A stretch of 32,000 nt of DNA, from positions 4,320,001 through 4,352,000 of the forward strand of contig NZ_CP064923.1 of the NCBI RefSeq assembly GCF_018336915.1, in the 5' to 3' direction. Positions 9,629-30,252 of the stretch are shown piece by piece (the stretch's first letter is position 1; each line of letters begins with the position of its first letter). The DNA is from Acaryochloris marina S15. GTDB taxonomy: Bacteria; Cyanobacteriota; Cyanobacteriia; Thermosynechococcales; Thermosynechococcaceae. The translations under genes were made by a program, and so were the position numbers. Below the pieces are notes generated by a model. That model was given only the letters and a program-made list of their open reading frames with translations. It was not told the origin of the DNA and searched no databases.

Positions 9629-10774
9629 CTACATCTGGGAAACTGCTGCACCTTCAGCCGACAGTTTTTGCACCAATGCCAACAATTCTTGGGGATTAAA
9701 GGGCTTAGTCAAATAGGCCGTACATCCAGACATTCGGGCTCTCATGCGGTCAATCAGGCCTTCTCGCCCCGTCAGCATCACGACAGGGATTTCCTTGAGC
9801 ATATCGACTTGGCGAACCATGCGACATAGCTCATAACCATCCATCTTCGGCATTTCAATGTCCATCAAGATGACATTAGGTTGCTGCTCAATTAAGACCG
9901 TTAATGCCTGTTTCGGATCCATTAACTGCAGTACTTCAAAACCTTCTGCCTCTAGAGATAGCTTCACAAACTGCTGAATGGTTTGACTATCATCTACACA
10001 AGCGACAACGGGGCGAACTTGTTCTTCGATGACTTGATAAGGGTGCAGACTGATTGCTCCAGCCTGAACCATCGGCGCTAGATCAGTCGCCAGCGTTAGG
10101 ACATCTATATCTGCCTGGGTTGCCACCTCGTAGAAGCAAAGGCCTTGCTCTAATAAATTGACAATATTTTGTAAGTGTCTTCCTTGACCATTTTCCTTCC
10201 AAGCTAATTTCAGGAATTGATCGGGATCTTCTAAACGTGGCTTTTGGAACGGAGAACCAATGACAGCCTGCAGCTGTGCCCATTGATTAATTTGATCACG
10301 AACCGGTAGAACAAGCTGCCGAAACGGAGCAGATAGAAGTAGCGGATCTAGTCCCACATTAGGCTCAAATTCTAAGTAGCCTTGAGGGAGGGCTAAGAAC
10401 TGCATGAGTGCTTCTTGAGTCAGAATAGCCAGCAGTTTTCGGAAGAAATTTAGGGGTAAATTATTGGCCTGCCAATACTTGCACAGATAGGAATACTCTG
10501 ACGTATTATTCGGTAGAGACTCAGATAAATCAAAGTCGGGTAGCTGCTTTTTGAGCACGTAGGGTAATCGCTCAGCATGCCCCATTGTGCTTTCTGCAAA
10601 ATGCATTTGCCCACCGCCTAGATACACCCGCCAGCTAATCGACGGATCACGAGAATCAGTGATAGTGATGCGGCCAGACCGTTGCTCAGAGATCACTTTC
10701 TGCAGCACTTTAGCAGGTGCAACCTGTGGTTTGTCCTGTTGGGTGGGTGTTGGAAGACTGGAGGTATAGGTCAT
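9629..10774 (-). CDS. PatA-type response regulator (N-terminal PATAN/DUF4388 domain + C-terminal receiver)
   Basis: The 381-aa ORF has a C-terminal REC domain (VVACVDDSQT...ILMDIEMPKMDGYELC...LTGREGLIDRMRARMSGCTAYLTKPF). The N-terminal region SGRITITD...WRVYLGGGQMHFAE is typical of PATAN domains. Confidence 0.8.
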   Translation of the reverse strand: MTYTSSLPTPTQQDKPQVAPAKVLQKVISEQRSGRITITDSRDPSISWRVYLGGGQMHFAESTMGHAERLPYVLKKQLPDFDLSESLPNNTSEYSYLCKYWQANNLPLNFFRKLLAILTQEALMQFLALPQGYLEFEPNVGLDPLLLSAPFRQLVLPVRDQINQWAQLQAVIGSPFQKPRLEDPDQFLKLAWKENGQGRHLQNIVNLLEQGLCFYEVATQADIDVLTLATDLAPMVQAGAISLHPYQVIEEQVRPVVACVDDSQTIQQFVKLSLEAEGFEVLQLMDPKQALTVLIEQQPNVILMDIEMPKMDGYELCRMVRQVDMLKEIPVVMLTGREGLIDRMRARMSGCTAYLTKPFNPQELLALVQKLSAEGAAVSQM

Positions 10775-17767: not shown

Positions 17768-18418
17768 ATGTACCTGTTTTTAGACACTGCAGATATTAAG
17801 GCCTGGGACTTTTGGCTGAGTAAGGGCTTATTTTATGGGGTCACAACCAATCCCACCTTATTGGAACGAGCACATATCCCTTGCACCCTCGACCAACTCA
17901 AAAAGCTAGCTATAGAAGCCTTTCAGCGAGGCGCTCAAGAAATTCATTTACAGACCTGGGGCACTGAAGTTGAAGATTTAGTTCGTCGGGGATGTGCGAT
18001 CGCAGCCATCGATTCCCGCGTAGTGGTTAAAGTGCCCATTACTTTGGCTGGTACAGAAGCAGCTGCACAGTTAATTCAGCAAGGAATTCGGGTTACTTTG
18101 ACTGGAGTATATGCCGTTCATCAAGCATTGATTGCTGCAGCCCTTAAGGCTGATTATGCTGCCCCCTATTTGGGGCGAATGACGGATCTGGGGCAAGATG
18201 GCAGGCAAGATATCATTTCGATGCAAAGAGGCTTGAATGGTGTCAATAGTTCCACAAAGCTTTTGGTGGCAAGTATCCGAAGTGTTGATGACATCACTGA
18301 TCTAACTCAGGAAACCCTCGATACGTTTACGGTATCACCTGCGATCGCAGAGCAACTCTTCCAAGTCGATGCAACTATAGATGCTGCACTAGCCTTTGAA
18401 AAAGCGGCACAAAATTAA
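17768..18418 (+). CDS. tal: transaldolase / fructose-6-phosphate aldolase family (short type)
   Basis: The 216-aa ORF begins MYLFLDTADI...GVTTNPTLL and contains VKVP (the Schiff-base Lys region) and APYLGR, as in small transaldolases. Confidence 0.85.
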   Translation: MYLFLDTADIKAWDFWLSKGLFYGVTTNPTLLERAHIPCTLDQLKKLAIEAFQRGAQEIHLQTWGTEVEDLVRRGCAIAAIDSRVVVKVPITLAGTEAAAQLIQQGIRVTLTGVYAVHQALIAAALKADYAAPYLGRMTDLGQDGRQDIISMQRGLNGVNSSTKLLVASIRSVDDITDLTQETLDTFTVSPAIAEQLFQVDATIDAALAFEKAAQN

Positions 18419-21400
18419 TGGGACTCAATTCCTAACGATTCTGCAGTAATGGGTAGTTTGACGATAAAAGTTGTTCCTTGACTAGCAATACTCTCAAAGG
18501 TGATCGTCCCTTGGTGAAGCTCTACAGACTTTTTAACAATTGCTAGCCCTAGTCCAGTTCCTTGTATCTGACCAACATTTGTGGCGCGTTGGAAAGATTC
18601 AAAAAGATGTGGTTGATCAGATTCAGGAATACCAATTCCCTGATCCTTAATCAAAAATATAACCTCATCATTAGAGAAAGTTACAGTAAAACAAACGATA
18701 GAACTTTCTGGAGAGTATTTAATTGCATTAGAAAGCAAATTACTTAGGATTTGTCTCAGTATCTTTTCATCTGAGAAGCAAGTAGTTTGTTTTCCTTCTA
18801 AAACATATTCAATGTTTTGACCACGCTTAGTATTCAACTGAAACTCTTCAACTAAGCTACTACAAAAAACTGTGAGATCTATAGATACGGGGTTAAACTC
18901 TGTCTTACCTACATCTGCTTTACTAAGGACTAAGACATCATCTAGTAGCCCAGTCATATGTTTCACATTTCTCTGTATACGGTCAAGATAAGAATGCTGC
19001 TTCTCCGTTTCCCATCCCTGACCATAATGTTTTATCAATTCCGTCGTCCCCAAAATTGCTGTTAATGGTGTACGAAATTCATGAGATGTCATAGAAATAA
19101 AACGAGATTTCAACTCATTGATTTCTCGTTCAGCTTGTTCTCTAGCTTGTGACTTCTGTAAATCTTCATAGAGATATGCATTTTCCAGAGAAATAGCTGC
19201 TTGTGTACATAGAATTTTCAGTATTTCAAGATGATCATTTCTAAAAGAGTCATAAGCTGCATTATTCTCCATATAAACCATCCCTACTACAGATGCTTGA
19301 TTAACTAAAGGAATACAAAGTAAAGACTTGACAGACTTATCAACAAAATATTCATCATTAAAAAAAACAGATTCATTTGAAGAAGTGCTTAATACTATAG
19401 ATTTTGAAGTGCGGCCAACATAATTAATTATTGACAATGGCAAAACACTGCTATCACACAAACTCACAGATTCTCTAATTGATATTTTATTATCGACAGA
19501 AGATGCTTCCAACAAATAATTATCTTCTCTTTTTATAATCAAAAAACCAATTTGTGCCCCTGCATTCAGCATTAATACTTTAATCATTTTTTCAAGAAGA
19601 TTCTCAAGTACAATCTCTTCTGAAATTGTTTGAGAGGCCTTTAGTATAGATGCTAAATCTAGATCAGTAAGACTAGAAGTAGTAGACAATAAATTCTTAG
19701 CTGATTGAGGCTTTAAAAAAAGATTGCTATTAGAATTATCATTAAAAATCGTAGAATAAAGCTTTTGTAAATGTTTCAATTTAGCAAAAGCTCCCCAGTT
19801 AAAATATGTATAATATGCTTCTGTTATATACAGTTCTCCTATCTTATTTCTTTCTAATGAAAAGTAATATTCTGCTGCTAATTCATAAGCGATTGCTTCT
19901 TCATATTGAAAGCAAGTCTTGTTAACAGCTTTCAGAGCTTTTTCATATAAGTCAGATGCTTTATTATCACCTAGAACTCTTAAAATCTCAGCTTTAACTA
20001 AAAAATATTTATGCAAACAGTTACTAGGAGAATTTTTTGACCAGACTTTCAGCTTATCAAGGTTAATATTTGCTTGTCGAAGTACACTTGACTTTGACTT
20101 ACTGTCTACAGTTTTCAATAAAGCTAAAGCATATATGAAAACATATAAAGGAATATAAGCTATGCCAAGTGCAGTTTCCTCTATTTCAGATGAATACTTA
20201 GAATACTTTAATGAAGTACTATAATCATGAAAAATAAAAGACAAAAAAGATTTTGATAAATAAACAGAAAATATCGCTACATTATTTTTCGCATTAACTA
20301 TTGCTGGAAAATCAACATTCTCATTAAAGCTGTCCCCTTCTAAAAGACAACATTCTTTCTCTTTAAAGGCAAGGTTTACTGCTACTTGCTTCCATAACTT
20401 TGCATGAATTAATTGAAATTCTTGTTTTTGCTTTGAGATCAGTTCGATATAATTAGTATGTTCATTAACAACATTACTAATGTTTTCTCCAGCTAAAAAT
20501 AAATAGCTACAATAAAATGAAGCGCAATGGCATGCATTTTCAGTATCGCCAAATGATAAGCCATAATTTATTCCTTCTTGAAGAGGGGAAAGTGAATGAG
20601 TGATATCTTCACACCAATGCCTGATAAAAACATTAAAAACCAGAAAGATTTTTGAGAACTGATCTTTAGCTCCTAACTGTTTAGCTATCTCAATAGCAAC
20701 CTGACCAAATTGATAGCCACTTACCATTTGATTAAGCTTTCCACATAGAATAACTCCATAGCTAGCATATGCAAAGCTAGATAAACTAGAATTCCCATAC
20801 TTTAGAGATATATCGACCATCCTAAATATTACTAAAGGGAATAATTTTGGTGAATAGATAAAAATCGCAGGTACTACATTAGTTAAAATTCTCATCGCTG
20901 ATAGATATTGCTTATTATCCATCTTCTTAATTAGTAAAAGTTGAGATGGCTTTCCGGCTAACATTAGTTTTACTTTAATAAGCAATAAATTTATCAAAAT
21001 TATAAATTCGGATTCATTCTTGGAAAATTTTACATTAATCTTTTCAAGAAATTCAAATGCTTTTCTAATTGCTATATCCATCCTATTTTGAGCAATATCT
21101 GAAAGCACTTGAATTTCAACAATTTTAGCTATATCTAATACATTATTCGAAGATTCAATTACTTTGGTAGAATATTCTTCAACTTTTTCATAGTCTGTCG
21201 ATAAATATGCAGACTCAACAAATTCAGTATAAATTTCAAGAAAGAGAGAATAACAATTATCCCAAGAGTAATCAGACAAAAAATCCAAACTGATTTGAAA
21301 ATATATATTCGCAGCTTCATATGAGGTTGATTCTTTTGCTTTCTTGCCAGCAATTAAATTAAGCTCAGAAAGATATAGCCTATTAATATCTTCATCTACT

Positions 21401-23637
21401 AATGAGACACCATAATTCAATTGATTCACTATATCGAAGATATATGTACTTAAGTCATCTTTCCTCAAATGATTCAATAGGATTTTTCCTATCTTGTAAT
21501 GAGTTAGTTTTGTTTTAGAAGAAGAAACTGAAGTATAAGCAGCTTGCTGCACCCGATCATGCAAGAATTGGTATTCTACATTCTCTACATCTTCTTGCTT
21601 AAATCTAGAAGGTAGATTATTTATAACCAGTGCTAGCTTATACGACTTACTAACCGGCAATATCAATCCACTCTGTAACGCTGGCCATAGCTTTACAACA
21701 ACATCTTTTGGTTGAGAAGAAGAGACAACTGACAGAAAATTTAAATCAAATTTATTGCCTATACATGATGCAAGATATAAGAGATTTTGAGTATCAGTAG
21801 GAAGTTGAAAAATGCTATTTTGCATCAACTCAACTATACTTAGACTAACAAGGTCAAGGTTTTGAACTTTGTTTTCATAGAAACTCCATTTCCCTTCATT
21901 AAAATCGAACTTAATTACTTTTTTTTCATAAAAAATCTTAATTAGCTGACTAATATGAAAAGGATTACCTTTTGACATATCAAATATGATTTTAACTAAT
22001 GGCTCAACGGAAGAATAAGTAAGGTCAAAAGTATCTTCAATAATCTCTTTAACATATTCATTCCCTAAACTTTTTATATTTATATGCTTGATATTGATTT
22101 TTAAATTCTCTATATTTTTAATAAAAAATCTTAGGGGGTGTGTTTTAGATATTTCATTATCTCGATAAGATAAGATCATTAAAAGATGACTATCAGAAGC
22201 ATCTACAAGCAATTCCTCTAAGAACTTAATTGAAGAGAAATCGAACCATTGTAAATCATCTAAAAATACAACAATAGGATGTTCAGATTGTGTAAAAACA
22301 TTTACAAATTTTTTAAATACTCTTAAATACCGCTTTTGTGACTCTATAGCATTTAGCTCTTTCACTTCTGGTTGAGGCCCAATAATTAGCTCAAGATCAG
22401 GAATATTATCAATAATAATATTCGCATTTTCACTGAGTTCTTGAACAAGAATTTCTTTCCAAAAAATGATTTTATGTTCTGGTTCTGAAAGTATTTGCTG
22501 AATTAAATTCTGAAAAGCGTTTAGGATGGCTGAGTTAGGAGTATCTCTTTGAAATTGATTTTGTTTCCCCTGTACAAAATACCCTCTATTTGTGATAGCC
22601 GATTTATTTAATTCTTGAATTAGACTAGTTTTTCCTACACCTGAATAGCCACTTACAAGAACAACTTCGCCAATTCCTTGAGATATATTATCGAATGACA
22701 ATAATAGTTCACTCATCTCAAATTTTCTGCCATAAAGTTTTTGTGGCAGAAAAAATTGACTTCTCTTATCTAACTTACCTGGCACAAAACCAAGTACTAT
22801 TTCACTTCTAATATATTCATTTTTAAACCATTCTAAATCCGACTTCAAACCCAATGCACTTTGATAACGATCTTCTGCATCTTTCTCAATTAATTTCATA
22901 ATAATGTCTGATATAGGTGAAGGAATACTTTCATCTAGAACTATCGGAGCCTTCGGAGTATCAGACAAATGGGAATAAACCATTTCTAATAAGTCTATTG
23001 CTTGAAATGGGCATTGCCCTATGAGTAATTCATAGAACGTTATACCTAAAGAATAAAGGTCAGATCGATGATCAACACAGCGATTCATTCTTCCTGTTTG
23101 CTCAGGCGATATATATGCTGGAGTACCTTCTATTGAATAAGAGCTTTCATAAAATGTTACTTCTTGTGGCAAACAAGAAGCAATGCTTAGATCCGTTATT
23201 TTAACCTGCTTTGTAACTGGATTAATTAATATATTTGATGGATTTATATCTTTATGAATAATATCTTTTGAATGGAGCTCACTTACAGCTTGAGCTAATT
23301 GAGTTGATATTTCAAGAAAATCTTGTAAACCAACTGAATTATTTATAATATATTCTCGTAAAGATATAGAATCAAAATATTCCTTAATCAATAAAGTAGT
23401 ACTTTTATCACTTTCAATACCAATGACTTTTATAATATTATTTGATGAAACAGTATTTGTAACTTTATATTCATAGTGCAATCGACTTATTTCAGAAAGA
23501 GATGGATATTTAGATCTGAGCGTTTTAACAACTACTTGCTTGCCAGACTTTTTCTCAAAACCTTTATAGATAATTATTGACAGCCCACAATATAGTTGTT
23601 CTAATAGAATATATTTTCCATCATAATCTAAATGCAT
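18415..23637 (-). CDS. multidomain sensor: Ser/Thr protein kinase-like domain + P-loop (AAA_16/STAND) + long helical repeat region + GAF + HisKA/HATPase_c histidine kinase
   Basis: The 1740-aa ORF has GGAGGA 3 nt before its ATG. The kinase domain spans aa ~8-280 (VVVK38, HKD130INPSN, SPE177-179). The P-loop is GYSGVGKT (aa 330-337) and the Walker B is VVFLDD (aa 456-461). The H-box SH1519EFRTPL, N-box NLLSNAIKY, G1 DQGIGI and G2 GTGLGLAIV are all present. The gene is very AT-rich. Confidence 0.9.
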   Translation of the reverse strand: MHLDYDGKYILLEQLYCGLSIIIYKGFEKKSGKQVVVKTLRSKYPSLSEISRLHYEYKVTNTVSSNNIIKVIGIESDKSTTLLIKEYFDSISLREYIINNSVGLQDFLEISTQLAQAVSELHSKDIIHKDINPSNILINPVTKQVKITDLSIASCLPQEVTFYESSYSIEGTPAYISPEQTGRMNRCVDHRSDLYSLGITFYELLIGQCPFQAIDLLEMVYSHLSDTPKAPIVLDESIPSPISDIIMKLIEKDAEDRYQSALGLKSDLEWFKNEYIRSEIVLGFVPGKLDKRSQFFLPQKLYGRKFEMSELLLSFDNISQGIGEVVLVSGYSGVGKTSLIQELNKSAITNRGYFVQGKQNQFQRDTPNSAILNAFQNLIQQILSEPEHKIIFWKEILVQELSENANIIIDNIPDLELIIGPQPEVKELNAIESQKRYLRVFKKFVNVFTQSEHPIVVFLDDLQWFDFSSIKFLEELLVDASDSHLLMILSYRDNEISKTHPLRFFIKNIENLKINIKHINIKSLGNEYVKEIIEDTFDLTYSSVEPLVKIIFDMSKGNPFHISQLIKIFYEKKVIKFDFNEGKWSFYENKVQNLDLVSLSIVELMQNSIFQLPTDTQNLLYLASCIGNKFDLNFLSVVSSSQPKDVVVKLWPALQSGLILPVSKSYKLALVINNLPSRFKQEDVENVEYQFLHDRVQQAAYTSVSSSKTKLTHYKIGKILLNHLRKDDLSTYIFDIVNQLNYGVSLVDEDINRLYLSELNLIAGKKAKESTSYEAANIYFQISLDFLSDYSWDNCYSLFLEIYTEFVESAYLSTDYEKVEEYSTKVIESSNNVLDIAKIVEIQVLSDIAQNRMDIAIRKAFEFLEKINVKFSKNESEFIILINLLLIKVKLMLAGKPSQLLLIKKMDNKQYLSAMRILTNVVPAIFIYSPKLFPLVIFRMVDISLKYGNSSLSSFAYASYGVILCGKLNQMVSGYQFGQVAIEIAKQLGAKDQFSKIFLVFNVFIRHWCEDITHSLSPLQEGINYGLSFGDTENACHCASFYCSYLFLAGENISNVVNEHTNYIELISKQKQEFQLIHAKLWKQVAVNLAFKEKECCLLEGDSFNENVDFPAIVNAKNNVAIFSVYLSKSFLSFIFHDYSTSLKYSKYSSEIEETALGIAYIPLYVFIYALALLKTVDSKSKSSVLRQANINLDKLKVWSKNSPSNCLHKYFLVKAEILRVLGDNKASDLYEKALKAVNKTCFQYEEAIAYELAAEYYFSLERNKIGELYITEAYYTYFNWGAFAKLKHLQKLYSTIFNDNSNSNLFLKPQSAKNLLSTTSSLTDLDLASILKASQTISEEIVLENLLEKMIKVLMLNAGAQIGFLIIKREDNYLLEASSVDNKISIRESVSLCDSSVLPLSIINYVGRTSKSIVLSTSSNESVFFNDEYFVDKSVKSLLCIPLVNQASVVGMVYMENNAAYDSFRNDHLEILKILCTQAAISLENAYLYEDLQKSQAREQAEREINELKSRFISMTSHEFRTPLTAILGTTELIKHYGQGWETEKQHSYLDRIQRNVKHMTGLLDDVLVLSKADVGKTEFNPVSIDLTVFCSSLVEEFQLNTKRGQNIEYVLEGKQTTCFSDEKILRQILSNLLSNAIKYSPESSIVCFTVTFSNDEVIFLIKDQGIGIPESDQPHLFESFQRATNVGQIQGTGLGLAIVKKSVELHQGTITFESIASQGTTFIVKLPITAESLGIESH

Positions 23638-23946
23638 ATGTCCTCCAGTACTTACTCAATTACTAAATCTATTATTTAAAGATATATATTATTCCTAAAA
23701 ATATCTTTTTTCATATCTCATTCATGATTTATATATATTATCTTCTCCCATATATCATTTCATTCTTTTATTTCTTGATATCTATAGAGATCTGACGTGA
23801 GTTGTGAGACTTATATTTAACCTAAATGGACACTGGTAAAGATTTCAGCCTCTCTACATCTCACGATTGATTTCAGATTGCTATAGATCTTTAAACAGCA
23901 TCCTTCCCCTTGAATGGAATGAGTCTATTTAGCAATGGATATAAGA

Positions 23947-23955
23947 CACTCGAAG
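23947..23955. repeat. left 9-bp target-site duplication (CACTCGAAG) of MITE copy A
   Basis: The identical 9-mer recurs at 24169-24177, immediately outside the two terminal inverted repeats. Confidence 0.8.
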
Positions 23956-24168
23956 CTGACTGCCTGACATATCTCTGAAAGCCTTTTCCTCGTATGGGTT
24001 TGCACTGTAAGAATAGCAACGTTGCCTCCTAAGGCAAGAGAGTTGGTAGTACGGTTTGGTTGCGTTTGACGTGCGAACAATGCCAAAAGTTAGCCTTATA
24101 CACCCTGCTATTCAGCATCCAAAAGCCACGTATCTAAAAGCTTTGAGGCACTTATGTCAGGCAGTCAG
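23956..24168. mobile_element. MITE-like non-autonomous element, copy A (213 bp, intact ends)
   Basis: It has perfect 16-bp terminal inverted repeats: CTGACTGCCTGACATA at 23956-23971 and TATGTCAGGCAGTCAG at 24153-24168. Weaker inverted similarity extends inward. It is flanked by the 9-bp direct repeat CACTCGAAG, has no coding capacity, and has a second diverged copy about 80 bp downstream. Confidence 0.8.
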
Positions 24169-24177
24169 CACTCGAAG
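24169..24177. repeat. right 9-bp target-site duplication (CACTCGAAG) of MITE copy A
   Basis: See the left duplication at 23947-23955. Confidence 0.8.
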
Positions 24178-24249
24178 ACTTGCTGAACACCATGAATAGC
24201 TTTGATTTCGCTATTATTCTGCTGAGTTAAGGTTTTCAAATTGATGGTA

Positions 24250-24460
24250 ATCCAAGCCTGATATATATCTGAAAGCCTTTTACTTGTATGGATTTACACT
24301 GTGAGAATAGCAACGCTGCCCCCTAAGGTAAAAGAGTTGGTAATACGGTTTGGTTGTGTTTGACGTGCGAACAATGCCAAAAGTTAGCCTTATACCCTGC
24401 TATTCAGCACCCAAAAGCTATGTTTCTAAAGGCTTTAAGGTACTTATATCAAGCAGTCAG
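24250..24460. mobile_element. MITE-like element, copy B (diverged, left terminus degraded)
   Basis: It is collinear with copy A and in the same orientation. My hand alignment gives about 22 substitutions plus one 2-nt indel over about 207 aligned nt. The right end TATATCAAGCAGTCAG is recognisable. The first 6 nt (ATCCAA versus CTGACT) do not match, and I found no flanking duplication. Confidence 0.7.
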
Positions 24461-25308
24461 TATGAAAGCATCTATCGCAAACCAACCCATCAATCTTATA
24501 GATAAAATTCTTCTTACCATTTTATCTATGAGCCCCTGACAAATGCATTTTCTATCCATAGAGTTAATAACAAGTTCGTACTATCACTCTGATATCCGGT
24601 AACTATCACCATCTATCGCAACAGCATCCACAATGGATACGAACGACCATTAAGCAACCAATAACTTGCTTCACAGCATTGATCTGTTCTTAGATCTCTC
24701 AACCATCATTCTATAGGGCCATCTTAGTTTTTTTGCAAATAACTTAAATCAGCCTTGATCAACTTTGGCTCACATCAAAGCTAGATAATTTTCACATATG
24801 ATGATCCAACTATCGATTCACATAATATAAAGATATTGGCAATTCTATATTGCTCATTCTCATAGCCAATATAATCGAGTATTAAACAAAAAAAGTTTTT
24901 AAGATTTGACGTTTAAGATATAAATTTTTTTTGTTGCCTGAAAAGTCTGTATTTGAGTAAGTACAAAAGATATTTCTAAATAGAATACCTATATAAAAAC
25001 CTTATATTTCACCATATTTACATTGCAGGCTAAACATTATAGTTAATATTTTTTACAAGAAGATTAAAGCTTAACAACTTGTTACAATACTAAGAAGTAT
25101 CTACGCGTTATTACTTATATCTAGTCAATGCTCATCACTTTCAATACGTATTTTTACTGATGAATCATCAATAGTAATTAGCTTATTCTTTCATATAAGT
25201 TCTTAACTATGAGAGCCAAATAAATTTACTTATTCTTGTGTAATTGAATACAATTTTCATGAGCTATTATATCAATTTAAAAATATAAAATTCATGAAAT
25301 AGTCAGCA

Positions 25309-25324
25309 CTTAATAATTATTAAG
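25309..25324. promoter_or_regulatory. perfect 16-bp palindrome CTTAATAATTATTAAG about 83 bp upstream of the 892-aa gene (candidate operator)
   Basis: Perfect dyad symmetry was read directly from the sequence. AT-rich context raises the chance expectation, so function is unproven. Confidence 0.3.
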
Positions 25325-25406
25325 ATATTCAAGATAAATATTATTAAAAGTGAAATATATATCTTGATCTTCCATAGCCTATCTTTAACTTCAAGGGGAT
25401 TTAGAA

Positions 25407-28085
25407 ATGCAAGAGATTCTTAGTTTAATCGAAATGCGAAAAAGTATATTTTCAAAATTACCATTCTTTAAATATTTACAAGATGATAGAATTAATCCTA
25501 GACAGAGATTAGCTTTTGCTCCATGTGCAGCTCATTTCATAATGAGTTTTGGTGATTTAAATAAGCATATTCTTAGAGTAGAACCAACAAAAGACCCAAT
25601 TCAGAAATTAGTTAATAAGCATACATATGAAGATGATAATCATTGGGAATGGTTTCTTGAAGACATTGAAAATCTTGGTTTCAATAAAACTCAAAACTTC
25701 AGTGATACATTACGCTTTCTATGGAGTAATGAGACAAAAACTCCTAGATGGATTAGCTTAGAATTATATAAGCTAGCTAGCTATGCATCACCTGAGTTAA
25801 AGCTAGTAATGATTGAAGCAATTGAGGCTACTGGTAGTATTTTTCTTTCTATTGTTCATACAGTAGCAGATGAGCTACAAAACTCAACCAAGCAGAAATA
25901 TAAGTATTTTGGAGCACATCACTTTCAAGTTGATTCTAATCATAGTATTGTTTCCAATAGCTCTGAGAACAATCTAGATAAAATCAATTTGTCTCTTGAA
26001 GATAAAGAAGAAGCGATTGAAATAGTCAATAAAGTTTTTGATGTTTTCACAGATTTCACAAATGAGCTTTTAAACTTTGCTAAAGACCATAGTCATAAAA
26101 GGCTCACATATAGTGAATCAATTATTGAACATGAATATTTAATAATTGGCGGAGGCCCTGCTGGTTTGCAGCTAGGATATTATCTTCAAAAATCTGGAGA
26201 TGATTACGCGATTTTGGAGGCAGGAAGCTCTCCAGGAACTTTCTTTAAAAAGTACCCTCGCCATCGAAAACTTATATCAATCAATAAAAGAAATACTGGA
26301 TATAGCGACCCTGAGATAAACTTACGTTGGGACTGGAATTCATTATTGAGTGATAATAAAGATCTGCTATTCAAGAATTATAGTAAAAAATATTTTCCTG
26401 ATGCTGATTCCCTAGTTAATTATCTAGAAGATTATGCAAATCACTTTTCTCTAAATATTCAATACGGTGTCAAAATCACTCAAATCACTAAAGACAAAAA
26501 GTTTATATTAACTGATCATCTTGGAAAAGTTTACTCTTGCAAGCATTTGATAATAGCTACTGGTTGTTCTAAACTTTATCTTCCTGATATACCCGGCATT
26601 GAATTAGCTGAGAAATATACTAGCGTATCAGTAAAACCAGACAACTTTGAGAATCAAAGAATTTTAGTTATTGGCAAAGGAAATTCTGCATTTGAAACTG
26701 CTGACAATTTAATTGATACTGCAGCAACAATACATATTTGCAGCCCCAATCCAATCTCTATGGCTTGGAAGACCAAGTATGTTGGGCATCTCCGTGCTGT
26801 AAACAACAATTTTTTAGATACTTATCAACTTAAATCTCAAAACCTGATTCTTAATGCTCATATTAATAATATCAAGCAAAATGAGCATGGTAAGTTCATC
26901 GTCAATGTTTCTTACACCCATGCAAATGGTGAAGTAGAAGATCTCGAATATGATCGGATTATCGCTTGTACTGGTTTCCGCTTTGATGACAGCATTTTTG
27001 ATAACTCATGTAAACCAAATCTTACGATTAATAATCGTTTCCCTGATCAAACAAGTGCTTGGGAATCTACTAATGTAAAAGATCTATTTTTTGCAGGTAT
27101 TCTCATGCATATGAGAGACTTTAAAGAGAACCAATCAGGCTTTATTCACGGCTTTAGATACAATATTAAAGCTCTCCACCAAATTTTTGAGCGCCGTTTC
27201 CACCACAAAGCCTGGCAGCATCAAAACTTAGAATTAATTCCACAAACATTCACCGATGTAATTCTTAAGCGAGTGAATCAAAGTTCTGCATTATGGCAGC
27301 AAACAGGCTTTCTATGTGATGTCATCTTTGTATCCGAAGATCAGCAGCAAGGAAAGTATTACCAAGAAGTTCCTCAAGACTATCTTTTTGACAGTGATTT
27401 AGGAAAACACAACCACTACTACACTATTACGTTGGAATTCGGACATGAATACCTAGATGCCTTTCCTGATCCATTCGCCATTGAGCGAGTTCATAAAGAT
27501 GACATACATAATGCAGAGCAAAGTCCCAGTCTTCACCCCATCATCCGGCGTTATTACCAAGGCAAATTAGTAGCTGAGCATCATATTATCGAAGATATCG
27601 CCAGTGAATGGAAAGAAGAGGTACATATTCAACCACTGTTAAAGTTTATGACTGAGCAGCTAAACGACTCCCAAGGAATCGGTACTCATCTTCTTGCGGC
27701 AGGACTGCTCACGTCAGAGCAGTTGGAAGTCGCCTTAGCGGAACAAGAACTGGAAACATCAGCTCGTTTAGGAGATGTTATACAAAAACGGGGTTGGGTA
27801 CAAAAACGAACCATTCAATTTCTATTGCATCAAGTCAACAATACGTTGGTTGATAATCCAGAACTTAGCGCCTGTGCTCAGTTGGGAGCAAATCTAGTTG
27901 AAGCAGGCTTAGTAACATCAACACAAGTTGACGAGGCATTACTAGAACAGCAAATCTCGAACAAACGCTTAGGAGAAATTTTGGTAAACCACGGCTGGGT
28001 AACTCCACAAACCGTTGAATACATGATGAAGCATCTCTCCCAGGCAAACGTTACTGTTCAGCCTGAAGTCGCTGTACTGAATTAA
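25407..28085 (+). CDS. three-part fusion protein: heme-oxygenase-like diiron oxidase (HDO)-like domain + FAD/NAD(P)H flavoprotein monooxygenase-like core + two C-terminal MshEN/T2SSE_N-like modules
   Basis: The 892-aa ORF has the SD-like AAGGGGA about 9 nt before its ATG. Aa 1-232 are all-helical with E75-x3-H79, E137/E140 and H172-x3-D176-x2-H179. Aa 243-590 carry GGGPAG (248-253), ATG (384-386), GKGNSA (423-428) and FFAG (561-564). Aa 757-877 hold four 24-residue RLGxxLLxxGLLxxxxLxxxLxxQ-like repeats. Confidence 0.85.
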   Translation: MQEILSLIEMRKSIFSKLPFFKYLQDDRINPRQRLAFAPCAAHFIMSFGDLNKHILRVEPTKDPIQKLVNKHTYEDDNHWEWFLEDIENLGFNKTQNFSDTLRFLWSNETKTPRWISLELYKLASYASPELKLVMIEAIEATGSIFLSIVHTVADELQNSTKQKYKYFGAHHFQVDSNHSIVSNSSENNLDKINLSLEDKEEAIEIVNKVFDVFTDFTNELLNFAKDHSHKRLTYSESIIEHEYLIIGGGPAGLQLGYYLQKSGDDYAILEAGSSPGTFFKKYPRHRKLISINKRNTGYSDPEINLRWDWNSLLSDNKDLLFKNYSKKYFPDADSLVNYLEDYANHFSLNIQYGVKITQITKDKKFILTDHLGKVYSCKHLIIATGCSKLYLPDIPGIELAEKYTSVSVKPDNFENQRILVIGKGNSAFETADNLIDTAATIHICSPNPISMAWKTKYVGHLRAVNNNFLDTYQLKSQNLILNAHINNIKQNEHGKFIVNVSYTHANGEVEDLEYDRIIACTGFRFDDSIFDNSCKPNLTINNRFPDQTSAWESTNVKDLFFAGILMHMRDFKENQSGFIHGFRYNIKALHQIFERRFHHKAWQHQNLELIPQTFTDVILKRVNQSSALWQQTGFLCDVIFVSEDQQQGKYYQEVPQDYLFDSDLGKHNHYYTITLEFGHEYLDAFPDPFAIERVHKDDIHNAEQSPSLHPIIRRYYQGKLVAEHHIIEDIASEWKEEVHIQPLLKFMTEQLNDSQGIGTHLLAAGLLTSEQLEVALAEQELETSARLGDVIQKRGWVQKRTIQFLLHQVNNTLVDNPELSACAQLGANLVEAGLVTSTQVDEALLEQQISNKRLGEILVNHGWVTPQTVEYMMKHLSQANVTVQPEVAVLN

Positions 28086-28112
28086 ATTAACTCATTCTTT
28101 CCTTTGAATGAT

Positions 28113-28153
28113 GACCTTTCCTCCATATTTCTTTGGAGGAAAGGTCTATTTTG
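28113..28153 (+). terminator. rho-independent terminator of the 892-aa gene
   Basis: Perfect 12-bp stem GACCTTTCCTCC (28113-28124) / GGAGGAAAGGTC (28135-28146) with a 10-nt loop, followed by TATTTTG. It lies 28 nt after the stop codon. Confidence 0.7.
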
Positions 28154-28215
28154 AATGAGTCGATGTTGCAAGCTGAGGACAAGCCAAAGTCTTCATTGCA
28201 ACATTTTAATTGGTC

Positions 28216-30252
28216 TTAAGACTTGAGATAGGTATAGCCTCTGAGACTACGCTCATAATTTTTTAGGAGAAGTTGGGCTTCTGGTAATGTGATGTGCTGT
28301 TCTTGCAATGCGGCTTCAGACTGTTTCCGAATTTCTTCTATCAGATCATCAGCGTCATATTGGACATATTCCAGTACCTCGGTGATCGTGTCGCCCTTGA
28401 CCACATGGGCAATGTGGTACCCCATCGGGGTTAGATCAATATGAACGACATTGGTATCACCAAATAAATTATGGAGATTGCCCATGACCTCTTGATAAGC
28501 CCCATTTAGAAACATCCCTAAGTAATAGGGTTCATTGGGCTTTAAGGTATGTAGTTCCAGGATTGGTTTTGTGTCGCGAGAGTAGATAAATTGATCGATT
28601 TTGCCATCACTATCGCAGGTGAGATCGACGAGAGTGCCCCTTTGAGTTGGCTCTTCTTCAAGACGGTGAATCGGCATAATCGGAAATAGCTGACCAATTG
28701 CCCAGGTATCGGGGGCAGATTGAAAAACAGAAAGATTGGTGTAATACAGTGACGCCATCCGACGTTCGAGATCTTCTAAGTCAACGGCAACGTCATCGTC
28801 TTGCCGTGCGATCGCAAGTATCTTCTGACAACAGGCCCCACATAATCGCTCTACCCTGGCCCGCCCCTGCAGACTCAGATAGCCAAACCCAAACAGACTA
28901 ACCGCTTCTTCCTTGAACTGCAAAGCATCATGATAGGCTTCCTGATAGTTCTCGGCATCAATAGTTTGATAGGTTTCCCAGAGATTCCGAATAATCAGAT
29001 GTTCATCAGCTTGGGCCGGTTCTGGCGTCAGGTCTAGGGTTTCACTACTACCCAACACATTCATAATCAGCACAGACTGGTGAGAGGCGATGGCTCGCCC
29101 ACTTTCACTCACCAATGTGGGCACGGAGATATCCGCTTCAGCACAGGCTTCTTTAACCTCGGCAACCACATCATTGGCATAGTTCTGCATGTTGTAGTTT
29201 TTAGACGCTGCCGAGTTGCTTTTCGATCCGTCGTAATCAACCCCTAGGCCACCGCCCACATCCAAGAACTTCATGTTGGCTCCTAATCGGGCCAGCTCGA
29301 CATAGATTTGGCTGGCTTCCCGCAGGGCATCTTTGATCACACTGATGGCTGAGATTTGAGAGCCAATATGGAAATGGAGCAATTGTAAGGAATCAAGTAG
29401 ATTAGCGACCCGCAGATGCTCAATGGCAGCCACGACTTCTGGAATGTTGAGACCGAATTTGGCGCGATCCCCCGCACTCGTTCCCCATCGACCAATTCCC
29501 TTGGCACTGAGCTTGGCCCGCACCCCCAAAATGGGCTGAATCTGAAGCCGACGGCTGGCTTCGATCACTAGATCCACTTCTTCTAATTGTTCAATGACAA
29601 TAATCGCCTGATGCCCCAAACGCTGGGCCAGCATGGCGGTTTCGACATATTCCAAATCTTTATAGCCATTGCAAATCAGCAATGCACCTGGGGTTTTAAG
29701 GGAGGCAATGGCAATTAGTAATTCCGGTTTGGAACCTGCCTCTAATCCAAACTGGTGGGGCTGACCAAAGCGAACTAGATCTTCGACTAGATGACGCTGT
29801 TGGTTACACTTGACGGGAAAAACCCCTCGGTAGCGCCCCGGATAGCTGTAGCGTGCGATCGCTTTAGCGAAACAGGCATTTAAGCGCTCAATTCGATCCG
29901 CCAAAATGTCTGAAAACCTGATCAGCAAAGGAGCATGGATATCTCGCTGCTGCAGGGACTGGACTAGCTCATACAGGTCTAAAGAGCCCCCTCGATCGGC
30001 TTTGGGCGATACCGTCACATGGCCTGCTGCATTAACGGAAAAATAGGGTTCTCCCCACCCCCGAATCCGGTAGAGTTTTTCGCTTTCCTCAATCGACCAA
30101 GCAACCGCTGAGTCTGCTTCAAGGCTATCTTCTGGAGGCGATAGATGTTCTGGACGCATCGATGCTGTTGGCGGACTACTATTACTCAACTCTGCCGCTA
30201 GGGTTTGAGGAATTTTGGTAGCCTTATCTTCACGGTTTCGACCGTTTTCCAT
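28216..30252 (-). CDS. speA: biosynthetic arginine decarboxylase
   Basis: The 678-aa ORF reads W.IEESEKLYRIRGWGEPYFSVNAAGHVTVSP, then FPVKCNQ (PLP Lys region), HFHIGSQ and GGGLGVDYDG, typical of SpeA. The true start may be an internal Met (for example M32). Confidence 0.9.
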   Translation of the reverse strand: MENGRNREDKATKIPQTLAAELSNSSPPTASMRPEHLSPPEDSLEADSAVAWSIEESEKLYRIRGWGEPYFSVNAAGHVTVSPKADRGGSLDLYELVQSLQQRDIHAPLLIRFSDILADRIERLNACFAKAIARYSYPGRYRGVFPVKCNQQRHLVEDLVRFGQPHQFGLEAGSKPELLIAIASLKTPGALLICNGYKDLEYVETAMLAQRLGHQAIIVIEQLEEVDLVIEASRRLQIQPILGVRAKLSAKGIGRWGTSAGDRAKFGLNIPEVVAAIEHLRVANLLDSLQLLHFHIGSQISAISVIKDALREASQIYVELARLGANMKFLDVGGGLGVDYDGSKSNSAASKNYNMQNYANDVVAEVKEACAEADISVPTLVSESGRAIASHQSVLIMNVLGSSETLDLTPEPAQADEHLIIRNLWETYQTIDAENYQEAYHDALQFKEEAVSLFGFGYLSLQGRARVERLCGACCQKILAIARQDDDVAVDLEDLERRMASLYYTNLSVFQSAPDTWAIGQLFPIMPIHRLEEEPTQRGTLVDLTCDSDGKIDQFIYSRDTKPILELHTLKPNEPYYLGMFLNGAYQEVMGNLHNLFGDTNVVHIDLTPMGYHIAHVVKGDTITEVLEYVQYDADDLIEEIRKQSEAALQEQHITLPEAQLLLKNYERSLRGYTYLKS

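Follow-up and report, generated by a model that had tools for sequence, protein, structure and literature searches.

The genome of Acaryochloris marina S15 carries, in the 32,000-nucleotide stretch analysed here (contig NZ_CP064923.1, positions 4,320,001 to 4,352,000, hereafter the window, in whose own numbering all coordinates are given), a gene that is a fusion of a conserved gene pair. This gene (25407..28085, + strand, 892 codons plus a stop) encodes in one chain an N-terminal domain of the AetD/SktA family of heme-oxygenase-like diiron oxidases (HDO), a flavoprotein core, a C-terminal domain (CTD) specific to that flavoprotein family and two MshEN-type modules of the kind associated with cyclic di-GMP (c-di-GMP). 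The parts are of known kinds, and no description was found, in the sources searched, of their combination: an SktA-like HDO, a flavoprotein-CTD and c-di-GMP-type modules beside a conserved giant kinase. Open reading frame calling and translation gave an uninterrupted frame of 892 amino acids from an ATG start, whose product is 100% identical to the Acaryochloris marina NCBI protein P0001, annotated solely and generically as "NAD(P)-binding domain-containing protein". An original prediction, made from the letters of this DNA, had read three modules in the uninterrupted frame; all three were recovered near the residues proposed and far above chance, but the description was incomplete, since it missed a further conserved domain, the fourth, which at aa 591-757 separates the flavoprotein core from the tail. 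Work on AetD (2022-2024) and SktA (2025) established that one diiron enzyme takes tryptophan to a nitrile, or to skatole and cyanide. The fusion bears on the electron source of such enzymes, on the role of the accompanying flavoenzyme and on the reason why cyanobacteria make AetD/SktA-type compounds: it names a partner enzyme and provides one polypeptide on which a reductase and a tailoring oxygenase can be distinguished.

The relation between the fused and the separate genes was apparent from 35 loci possessing both an HDO and a flavoprotein-CTD. In 27 of them the two are adjacent but separate genes and in eight they are fused, so that the window gene is the fusion of a conserved pair. Split loci, found in Lusitaniella, Rivularia, Nostoc PCC 7524, Scytonema and others, have the flavoprotein-CTD gene after the HDO gene on the same strand, starting 87 to 551 nt past it; fusions were seen in Acaryochloris, Pseudanabaena PCC 6802, a Thermosynechococcus metagenome-assembled genome and metagenomes, and wherever the 3' end of a fused gene is available it encodes the MshEN tail. 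Cyanobacteria commonly have HDOs of about 237 aa that stand alone; equally common are flavoprotein-CTD proteins of about 530 aa, which are 62-66% identical to the matching part of the window protein. About 44 clusters of full-length fusion homologues come from independent genomes and metagenomes, and the eight fused loci were confirmed at the DNA level with the frame open across the junction, which argues against an assembly artefact. Only the near-identical strain 'Moss Beach', annotated with a 492-aa fragment alone (P0023), might suggest a sequencing frameshift, wrongly joined genes or a decaying, functionless pseudogene; given the homologues and the open junctions, together with intact catalytic and cofactor motifs and a confident AlphaFold2 model, we consider that this explanation can practically be dismissed. 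The P0023 protein of Acaryochloris sp. 'Moss Beach' is 99% identical to the window protein and covers 55% of it; a truncation, a frameshift or a wrongly called start in that strain may account for the short form.

As the original prediction had anticipated, no description of this architecture was found in the literature searched. The combination is that of two genes which most cyanobacteria keep side by side as separate genes. An HDO linked covalently to another catalytic domain of its pathway is already known in SznF, which differs by its cupin partner, its arginine-derivative substrate, its 3-His/4-carboxylate ligands and the absence of a signalling tail (PMC13108848).

The N-terminal domain (aa 1-232, 25407..26102, + strand) is, by homology, a diiron tryptophan oxidase of the AetD/SktA type, as assessed by phmmer, Foldseek and alignment. 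Residues 1-231 matched the AetD chains of the PDB without gaps (phmmer E 3e-50), and the domain shares 52% identity with SktA-type proteins and 37% with AetD. The AlphaFold2 model (mean predicted local distance difference test score, pLDDT, of 81.5; mostly 76-97 over aa 1-228 except for the loop at aa 182-187) has the seven-helix heme-oxygenase-like fold and superposes on the AetD crystal structures with Foldseek template-modelling (TM) scores of 0.90-0.95 and root-mean-square deviations of 1.8-2.8 Å. The HDO assignment of the original prediction is therefore stronger than it had claimed, and the likeness to AetD, which it had offered as an analogy only, is one of real homology. The metal ligands of AetD are D76, H79, E140, H172, E176 and H179 (PMC11611611). 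According to the alignment all six positions are kept in the window protein, with Glu176 to Asp as the one change, and the predicted 3-His/3-carboxylate set (D76, H79, E140, H172, D176 and H179; codons within 25632..25943, + strand) falls exactly on them. D76, H79, E140, H172 and H179 are invariant among 21 aligned family members (alignment A2); at position 176 some subfamilies have Glu and others Asp, the latter recurring in several members. Residues F44, F48 and Y167, which hold the substrate in AetD, are conserved nearby. AetD (PDB 8TWW, 8JI2; PMC11611611, PMC10654658) is thus a homologue over its full length with the same metal-ligand positions and the same F44/F48/Y167 triad; it differs in being a stand-alone protein and in its pocket residues M139, A142 and S214, where S214 touches the C7 bromine.

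At these three pocket positions SktA has T139, T142 and F214 (2026 review, PMC13108848), and the window protein has I139, T142 and F214, Ile139 being also found in most family members. The numbering was checked on the real SktA locus of Nostoc punctiforme NIES-2108 (L024), which gave the published T/T/F. From tryptophan or 5-bromotryptophan, SktA makes skatole, cyanide and CO2 (Adak et al., JACS 2025, PMC11869266). It is likewise cyanobacterial, belongs to the same HDO family, has the same ligand positions and shares T142 and F214 with the window protein; the giant kinase described below also adjoins its locus. However, SktA is a free-standing protein of 237 aa, encoded beside the tryptophan halogenase SktB and the flavin-containing monooxygenase (FMO) SktC in a cluster of three genes, whereas the window system is without a halogenase, has a fused flavoenzyme of another family and a c-di-GMP-type tail in addition, and carries Asp176 for Glu and Ile139 for Thr. 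A tblastn search of the 32-kb window returned no homologue of SktB or SktC, and no halogenase is encoded there, so that plain tryptophan is the likely substrate of the HDO domain. Skatole, HCN and CO2, as in SktA, are predicted as its products and are more likely than a nitrile of the AetD type.

The flavoprotein core (aa 243-590, 26133..27176, + strand) was delimited by Pfam, profile search and Foldseek as a two-Rossmann FAD/NAD(P)H domain. Pfam Pyr_redox_3 matched aa 245-564 end to end (E 5e-50), both dinucleotide-binding motifs are there, and the four motifs named by the original prediction, GGGPAG (248-253), ATG (384-386), GKGNSA (423-428) and FFAG (561-564), are where it had placed them; its assignment to a class resembling both FMOs and thioredoxin reductase (TrxR)-type reductases also stands. 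With a family profile, the best PDB matches were the small class-B FMOs 4USQ, 4A9W, 4USR and 3D1C (E 1e-15 to 1e-13), followed at about 1e-9 by YpdA, thioredoxin reductases and TrxR-type ferredoxin reductases, and in Foldseek YpdA (TM 0.76), SMFMO (0.74) and 3D1C (0.73) were equally close. Two further Pfam families gave partial matches, FMO-like marginally (23.2 bits for a cut-off of 22) and Lys_Orn_oxgnase, a family of N-hydroxylating monooxygenases, with 37.3 bits for a cut-off of 21.3. The motif FxGxxxHxxxY that identifies FMOs is not present in the core, since FAGIQLHSAHY of SMFMO aligns with ELAEKYTSVSV of the window protein, which has no His. In the YpdA/Bdr family a catalytic Cys is conserved within the FAD motif GGGPCG. 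The window protein has Ala in its place and scores 80 with the NCBIfam YpdA model, for a cut-off of 340, which speaks against its being a bacillithiol-disulfide reductase of this family. With the small class-B FMOs (SMFMO 4A9W, CFMO 4USQ, PSFMO 4USR and 3D1C) and with YpdA/Bdr (7A7B) the core has in common the two-Rossmann FAD/NAD(P)H layout, but it is only about 19% identical to them, lacks both the FMO motif and the YpdA Cys and is followed by an extra C-terminal domain of 167 aa. As both signatures are missing and the folds are equally close, class membership cannot settle whether the flavoprotein is an oxygenase or a reductase.

Two other flavoenzyme families were rejected. AetD is located in a toxin gene cluster with AetF, AetA, AetB and AetE; the AetF-like character that had been considered for the flavoprotein was not borne out, no chain named AetF being among the PDB matches (52 hits with the single sequence, 60 listed profile hits and the top 50 Foldseek hits). 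The core does not belong to the SktC FMO family either, as it shares 26% identity over 125 aa with an SktC-type protein. Two stretches of the core, aa 452-476 (nt about 26760-26834) and aa 567-580 (nt about 27105-27146), are nearly invariant across the family (…WKTKYVGHLRAVNNNFLDTYQLKSQN… and …HMRDFK..QSGFIHGFRYN…) and have the lowest confidence in the AlphaFold model; they may be mobile active-site or partner-binding loops.

The fourth domain is an alpha/beta CTD (aa 591-757, 27177..27677, + strand) that is kept in every relative with many invariant polar residues, among them WQQT, YY, VHKDD, HP, EHH, ED and EW..E..H (alignment A4); EHH stands at 724-726, and H696 and H710 are likewise invariant. 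Pfam gave no match to it, and a dedicated AlphaFold2 model (pLDDT 79) gave no significant fold match to the PDB in Foldseek (best E 0.12). A word-indexed homologue search returned fragments only; an exhaustive search, with proteins clustered at 50% identity, recovered the CTD in 317 clusters. Short fragments aside, the proteins bearing it are mostly of about 515-567 aa with the CTD at the C-terminus, and it lies downstream of a Pyr_redox_3 core in every full-length member inspected. Flavoprotein-CTD proteins form a widespread, uncharacterised family of high conservation.

This family extends well outside HDO loci. Among 80 metagenome loci encoding a flavoprotein-CTD, 19-22, depending on the score threshold, have an HDO directly upstream, all with a GC content of 0.32-0.49. 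The other 58-61 are without HDO and mostly of GC 0.5-0.7, with a flavoprotein core that is still 55-66% identical. Their commonest neighbour is an adenylation/carrier-protein didomain (15 loci); TauD also recurs, as does an ABC transporter with a halogenase-like FAD domain fused to its ATPase. Several of these high-GC loci (L113, L121, L124, L148 and others among L107-L170) form recurrent clusters around the flavoprotein-CTD that also hold an NMT1-type binding protein, an ABC permease and a radical SAM protein of 550 aa, and tandem flavoprotein duplicates occur in HDO-less loci as well. The flavoprotein-CTD is also fused to other partners, namely the adenylation/carrier didomain (P0259, P0272), a Na/H exchanger (P0349) and a tryptophan dioxygenase domain resembling indoleamine 2,3-dioxygenase (IDO; P0322). 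P0322, of 918 aa, is encoded on a metagenome contig of 74% GC (L173, 8001-17792), and directly after its gene come those for a Pkinase-TPR protein, a sigma-70-family factor and an AAA_16-TPR protein, whose signalling domains are those joined within the cyanobacterial giant kinase. We regard this locus as an independent link of a tryptophan oxygenase, a flavoenzyme and kinase/STAND (signal transduction ATPases with numerous domains) signalling outside cyanobacteria.

Conversely, HDO genes are found with diverse accessory enzymes. Species-representative genomes were scanned and the 80 best of 240 HDO loci were kept, of which 34 have an SktB-type halogenase and an SktC-type FMO next to the HDO, 29 nothing recognisable, nine a flavoprotein of the window type and seven an O-methyltransferase. 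L083 is the sole locus of the 80 in which the halogenase/SktC pair and the window-type flavoprotein occur together, as they do in the metagenome locus L098. Since 29 of the 80 loci are without any flavoprotein, the HDO can do without a dedicated one.

The tail consists of two MshEN-type modules, at aa 757-810 (27675..27836, + strand; half-motifs GIGTHLL... and RLGDVIQ...) and aa 825-878 (27879..28040, + strand; QLGANLV... and RLGEILV...). NCBIfam NF053729, an MshE-related c-di-GMP motif, matched in two stretches (E 7.5e-25, 86.5 bits for a cut-off of 38), the best being aa 825-873, and the PDB matches of the tail are the N-domains of PilF and MshE (module 2 against MshE 5htl, E 1.3e-3). The published motif, RLGxx(L/V/I)(L/V/I)xxG(L/V/I)(L/V/I)xxxxLxxxLxxQ, has 24 residues and occurs twice per 53-residue module (PMC5013675). 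The MshE-type tail of the original prediction is therefore present, although no half-motif matches this pattern fully: where Arg is expected the first halves begin with G or Q, and the final Gln is absent from the second halves, so that Arg is found solely in the second halves and the terminal Gln solely in the first, the glycine/hydrophobic core being intact in all four. The same tandem of two 24-residue half-motifs per module is known from MshE, PilF and NfrB, and in the glycosyltransferase NfrB it is likewise carried by an enzyme (Wang et al. 2016, PMC5013675). The window tail differs in that each module keeps one of two Arg and one of two terminal Gln, and in being carried by oxidative enzymes of secondary metabolism, a setting that we did not find described. 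Binding of c-di-GMP by this tail is plausible. The same tail is borne by HDO-only proteins, with two modules (P0144, P0128) or one (P0136, P0212), and by flavoprotein-only proteins (P0052); it therefore belongs to the pathway and not to one enzyme. GGDEF-EAL response regulators are encoded in two related loci. In Altericista sp. CCNU0014 (L006/L034, 10001-21199), a 406-aa HDO bears two MshEN modules directly, without a flavoprotein, and after it come genes for an O-methyltransferase, a receiver-domain kinase of 2041 aa and a receiver-GGDEF-EAL protein, an arrangement that puts c-di-GMP turnover within the HDO locus.

From these data we propose the following scheme for the fusion protein. Judging from its close homologues, the HDO domain would bind L-tryptophan, or a closely similar compound, at Fe1 by the amino-acid end, activate O2 and cut or rearrange the side chain to yield a one-carbon-substituted indole. 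The flavoprotein-CTD would, as fusions, gene order and relatives suggest, be an NAD(P)H/FAD tailoring enzyme oxygenating the indolic substrate or product, in a role analogous to that of the SktC FMO of skt clusters without being homologous to it. The two MshEN-type modules would bind c-di-GMP and gate activity or assembly, and the genomic context suggests that the enzyme acts with, or is controlled by, the divergently encoded giant Ser/Thr-kinase/STAND/GAF/histidine-kinase protein. The proposal that the flavoprotein-CTD itself transforms an indolic substrate or product has, in our estimate, about an even chance of being right. We prefer it because this family is widespread without HDO and often paired with a carrier-protein system, because it takes the slot of the SktC FMO in the locus, because many HDO loci have no flavoprotein and because its nearest sequence-profile relatives are monooxygenases.

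Several observations weigh against this scheme. E176D and I139 depart from both characterised enzymes, SktA and AetD, and none of the four half-motifs of the tail matches the published MshEN pattern in its strict or relaxed form. For the flavoprotein, the FMO-identifying motif is missing and the reductases YpdA and TrxR-type ferredoxin reductase are structural neighbours with similar Foldseek scores. In vitro, SktA and AetD depend on added reductant, a role that a fused NAD(P)H flavoprotein could fill, and the metal centre of IDO, the other tryptophan enzyme fused to this module, also needs reduction.

These last points bear on whether the protein is a self-sufficient oxidase, as originally suggested, in which the flavoprotein-CTD would be an NAD(P)H reductase that returns the diferric centre of the HDO to the diferrous state and leaves organic substrates untouched. 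The assays of SktA and AetD use Fe(II) and ascorbate and no physiological reductant has been described, and by our own atom balance the conversion of tryptophan into skatole, HCN and CO2 releases two electrons when the reduction of O2 needs two more. Against a dedicated reductase stand the 29 of 80 HDO loci that do without a flavoprotein and the 34 that have an unrelated FMO instead. Besides the structural neighbours (YpdA at TM 0.76, TrxR-type ferredoxin reductases) and the missing FMO motif, the range of partners can be read in its favour, as the module is fused to an IDO-like heme enzyme and adjoins halogenase-like flavoproteins, both of which also need reducing equivalents; but the flavoprotein-CTD is widespread without HDO, and its top partner there, the adenylation/carrier didomain, needs no electron donor. 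Moreover, the invariant polar residues of the CTD are held across phyla whatever the partner, which would fit a conserved small ligand better than docking to a partner, and the closest relatives by sequence profile are monooxygenases. We consider the self-sufficient oxidase the main rival of our reading, though rather unlikely and not the one best supported by the data.

A different order of reactions can also be envisaged, in which the flavoenzyme acts first, N-hydroxylating or ring-oxygenating free or carrier-bound tryptophan, and the HDO then processes the modified amino acid. The partial Lys_Orn_oxgnase match, which exceeds its cut-off, the association with adenylation/carrier proteins elsewhere, which recalls pathways that load modified amino acids, and the fact that both fusion partners, HDO and IDO, use tryptophan as substrate would agree with this order. 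It is opposed by the frequency of HDO-only loci, by the direct use of plain or halogenated tryptophan by SktA, by the position of the HDO as first in gene and domain order and by the unchanged pocket residues that touch the amino-acid moiety of tryptophan, and we hold it to be very unlikely. An oxygenating flavoprotein-CTD working on the indolic substrate or product of the HDO remains the reading that we prefer.

Divergent from the fusion gene lies a gene encoding a protein of 1740 aa (18415..23637, - strand) in which Pfam recognised Pkinase, AAA_16, a repeat region, GAF, HisKA and HATPase_c. A homologue of this giant kinase is encoded within 10 kb of the HDO in 66 of the 80 loci, including the window and the published skt locus L024, and at least six of the 14 HDO loci without it are on contigs that end within about 4 kb of the HDO. 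No other gene accompanies AetD/SktA-family HDO genes as constantly, and it does so irrespective of the accessory enzymes; aligned end to end, the window kinase and its counterpart at an skt-type cluster are 34% identical. The SktA paper makes no mention of a kinase, and this neighbour was not found in the literature searched. An anti-phage defence system was also considered and not supported, as PADLOC gave generic Ser/Thr-kinase-domain matches for the kinase and none for the fusion protein. Together with the c-di-GMP-type tail, the near-constant kinase neighbour suggests that chemistry of the AetD/SktA type is under signal control, or is itself part of signalling, which, if true, would change how AetD/SktA-type 'biosynthetic gene clusters' are read.

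Within Acaryochloris the two genes share a hypervariable block of low GC content (19255..26250), defined by blastn and by domain-wise protein identity, which takes in the kinase up to about residue 1460 (from aa 1), the DNA between the two genes and the HDO domain. In blastn comparisons with L010 and L172, DNA identity is 83-96% outside the block and about 55-70%, or unalignable, inside, with the drop at about 19255 and the recovery somewhere from about 26250 to 26850. In protein comparisons with L172, identity is high for the flanking proteins (97-99%), the flavoprotein core (90%), the CTD (99%), the tail (97%) and the kinase transmitter (94%), in contrast to the HDO domain (48%) and the Ser/Thr-kinase (50%), repeat (40%) and GAF (56%) parts of the kinase. 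The HDO domain and the sensor part of the kinase are exchanged together as a single polymorphic cassette, the kinase transmitter and the rest of the enzyme being conserved. The breakpoints of this cassette are close to domain boundaries when the window is compared with L010, L171 and L172. Across about 19-28 kb of the window GC is 0.28-0.41, against about 0.49 elsewhere, and the original prediction had placed the gene in a foreign-looking island. However, four Acaryochloris-type genomes have the kinase and the fusion gene at one site, with transaldolase on one side and differing genes downstream, and the GC is low in all four. As the same site is occupied in the four genomes, a recent foreign insertion was rejected in its simple form and we regard the region as a hypervariable resident locus, not a strain-specific insertion.

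Over 22 full-length homologues, identity to the window protein is 45-80% for the HDO domain and 51-99% for the CTD, the two domains shuffling independently of each other. In a comparison of 62 loci of many genera, HDO identity correlated no better with the kinase sensor regions (Spearman 0.50-0.60) than with the transmitter (0.69), without co-variation in excess of shared ancestry, so that the co-swapped cassette is so far an observation at the level of Acaryochloris only. Its pattern resembles the 'pherotype' polymorphism of ComQXP-type quorum-sensing loci, in which synthase and receptor vary together. By this likeness, the HDO and the giant kinase might form a small-molecule signalling pair in which the enzyme, under c-di-GMP gating, makes a tryptophan-derived volatile that is sensed by the variable N-terminal part of the kinase, a proposal that we put forward as a distinctly unlikely one; the volatile could be a skatole-type indole and/or cyanide. 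On this reading, the fusion of an unrelated tryptophan dioxygenase to the same flavoenzyme in a bacterium of 74% GC, next to genes for a Ser/Thr kinase, a sigma factor and an AAA_16-TPR protein, would suggest that the link predates cyanobacteria.

The fusion gene has candidate expression signals of its own, as originally claimed: a Shine-Dalgarno-like AAGGGGA (25393..25399, + strand), read directly from the sequence, stands 7 nt 5' of the ATG, and a terminator-like hairpin with a 13-bp stem and a T-rich tail (28113..28146, + strand) lies between the convergent fusion and arginine decarboxylase genes. No significant Rfam match to an RNA element was obtained in 23000-28600. The remaining genes of the window are housekeeping ones, encoding dihydroorotate (DHO) dehydrogenase, the phosphoglycerate mutase iPGM, phosphoenolpyruvate synthase, NdhN, LdpA, transaldolase and arginine decarboxylase. 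A PatA-type response regulator with DUF4388/PatA_N and receiver domains is encoded at 9629-10774 (- strand), about 15 kb from the fusion gene, and Pfam PatA_N also gave faint matches on the MshEN tails of the fusion-protein family. The transaldolase (17768-18418, + strand) and kinase genes are convergent and their 3' ends overlap by 4 nt (18415-18418), an arrangement that recurs in L010, L171 and L172. Finally, the 1.77-kb intergenic region between the kinase and fusion genes holds two direct copies of an element of about 207 nt (23962-24168 and 24256-24460), 88% identical and 294 nt apart. Because it is not present in any related locus, this element may be an insertion resembling a miniature inverted-repeat transposable element; it has 10-nt terminal inverted repeats, GCCTGACATA...TATGTCAGGC, and folds into a long hairpin (z = -2.7).

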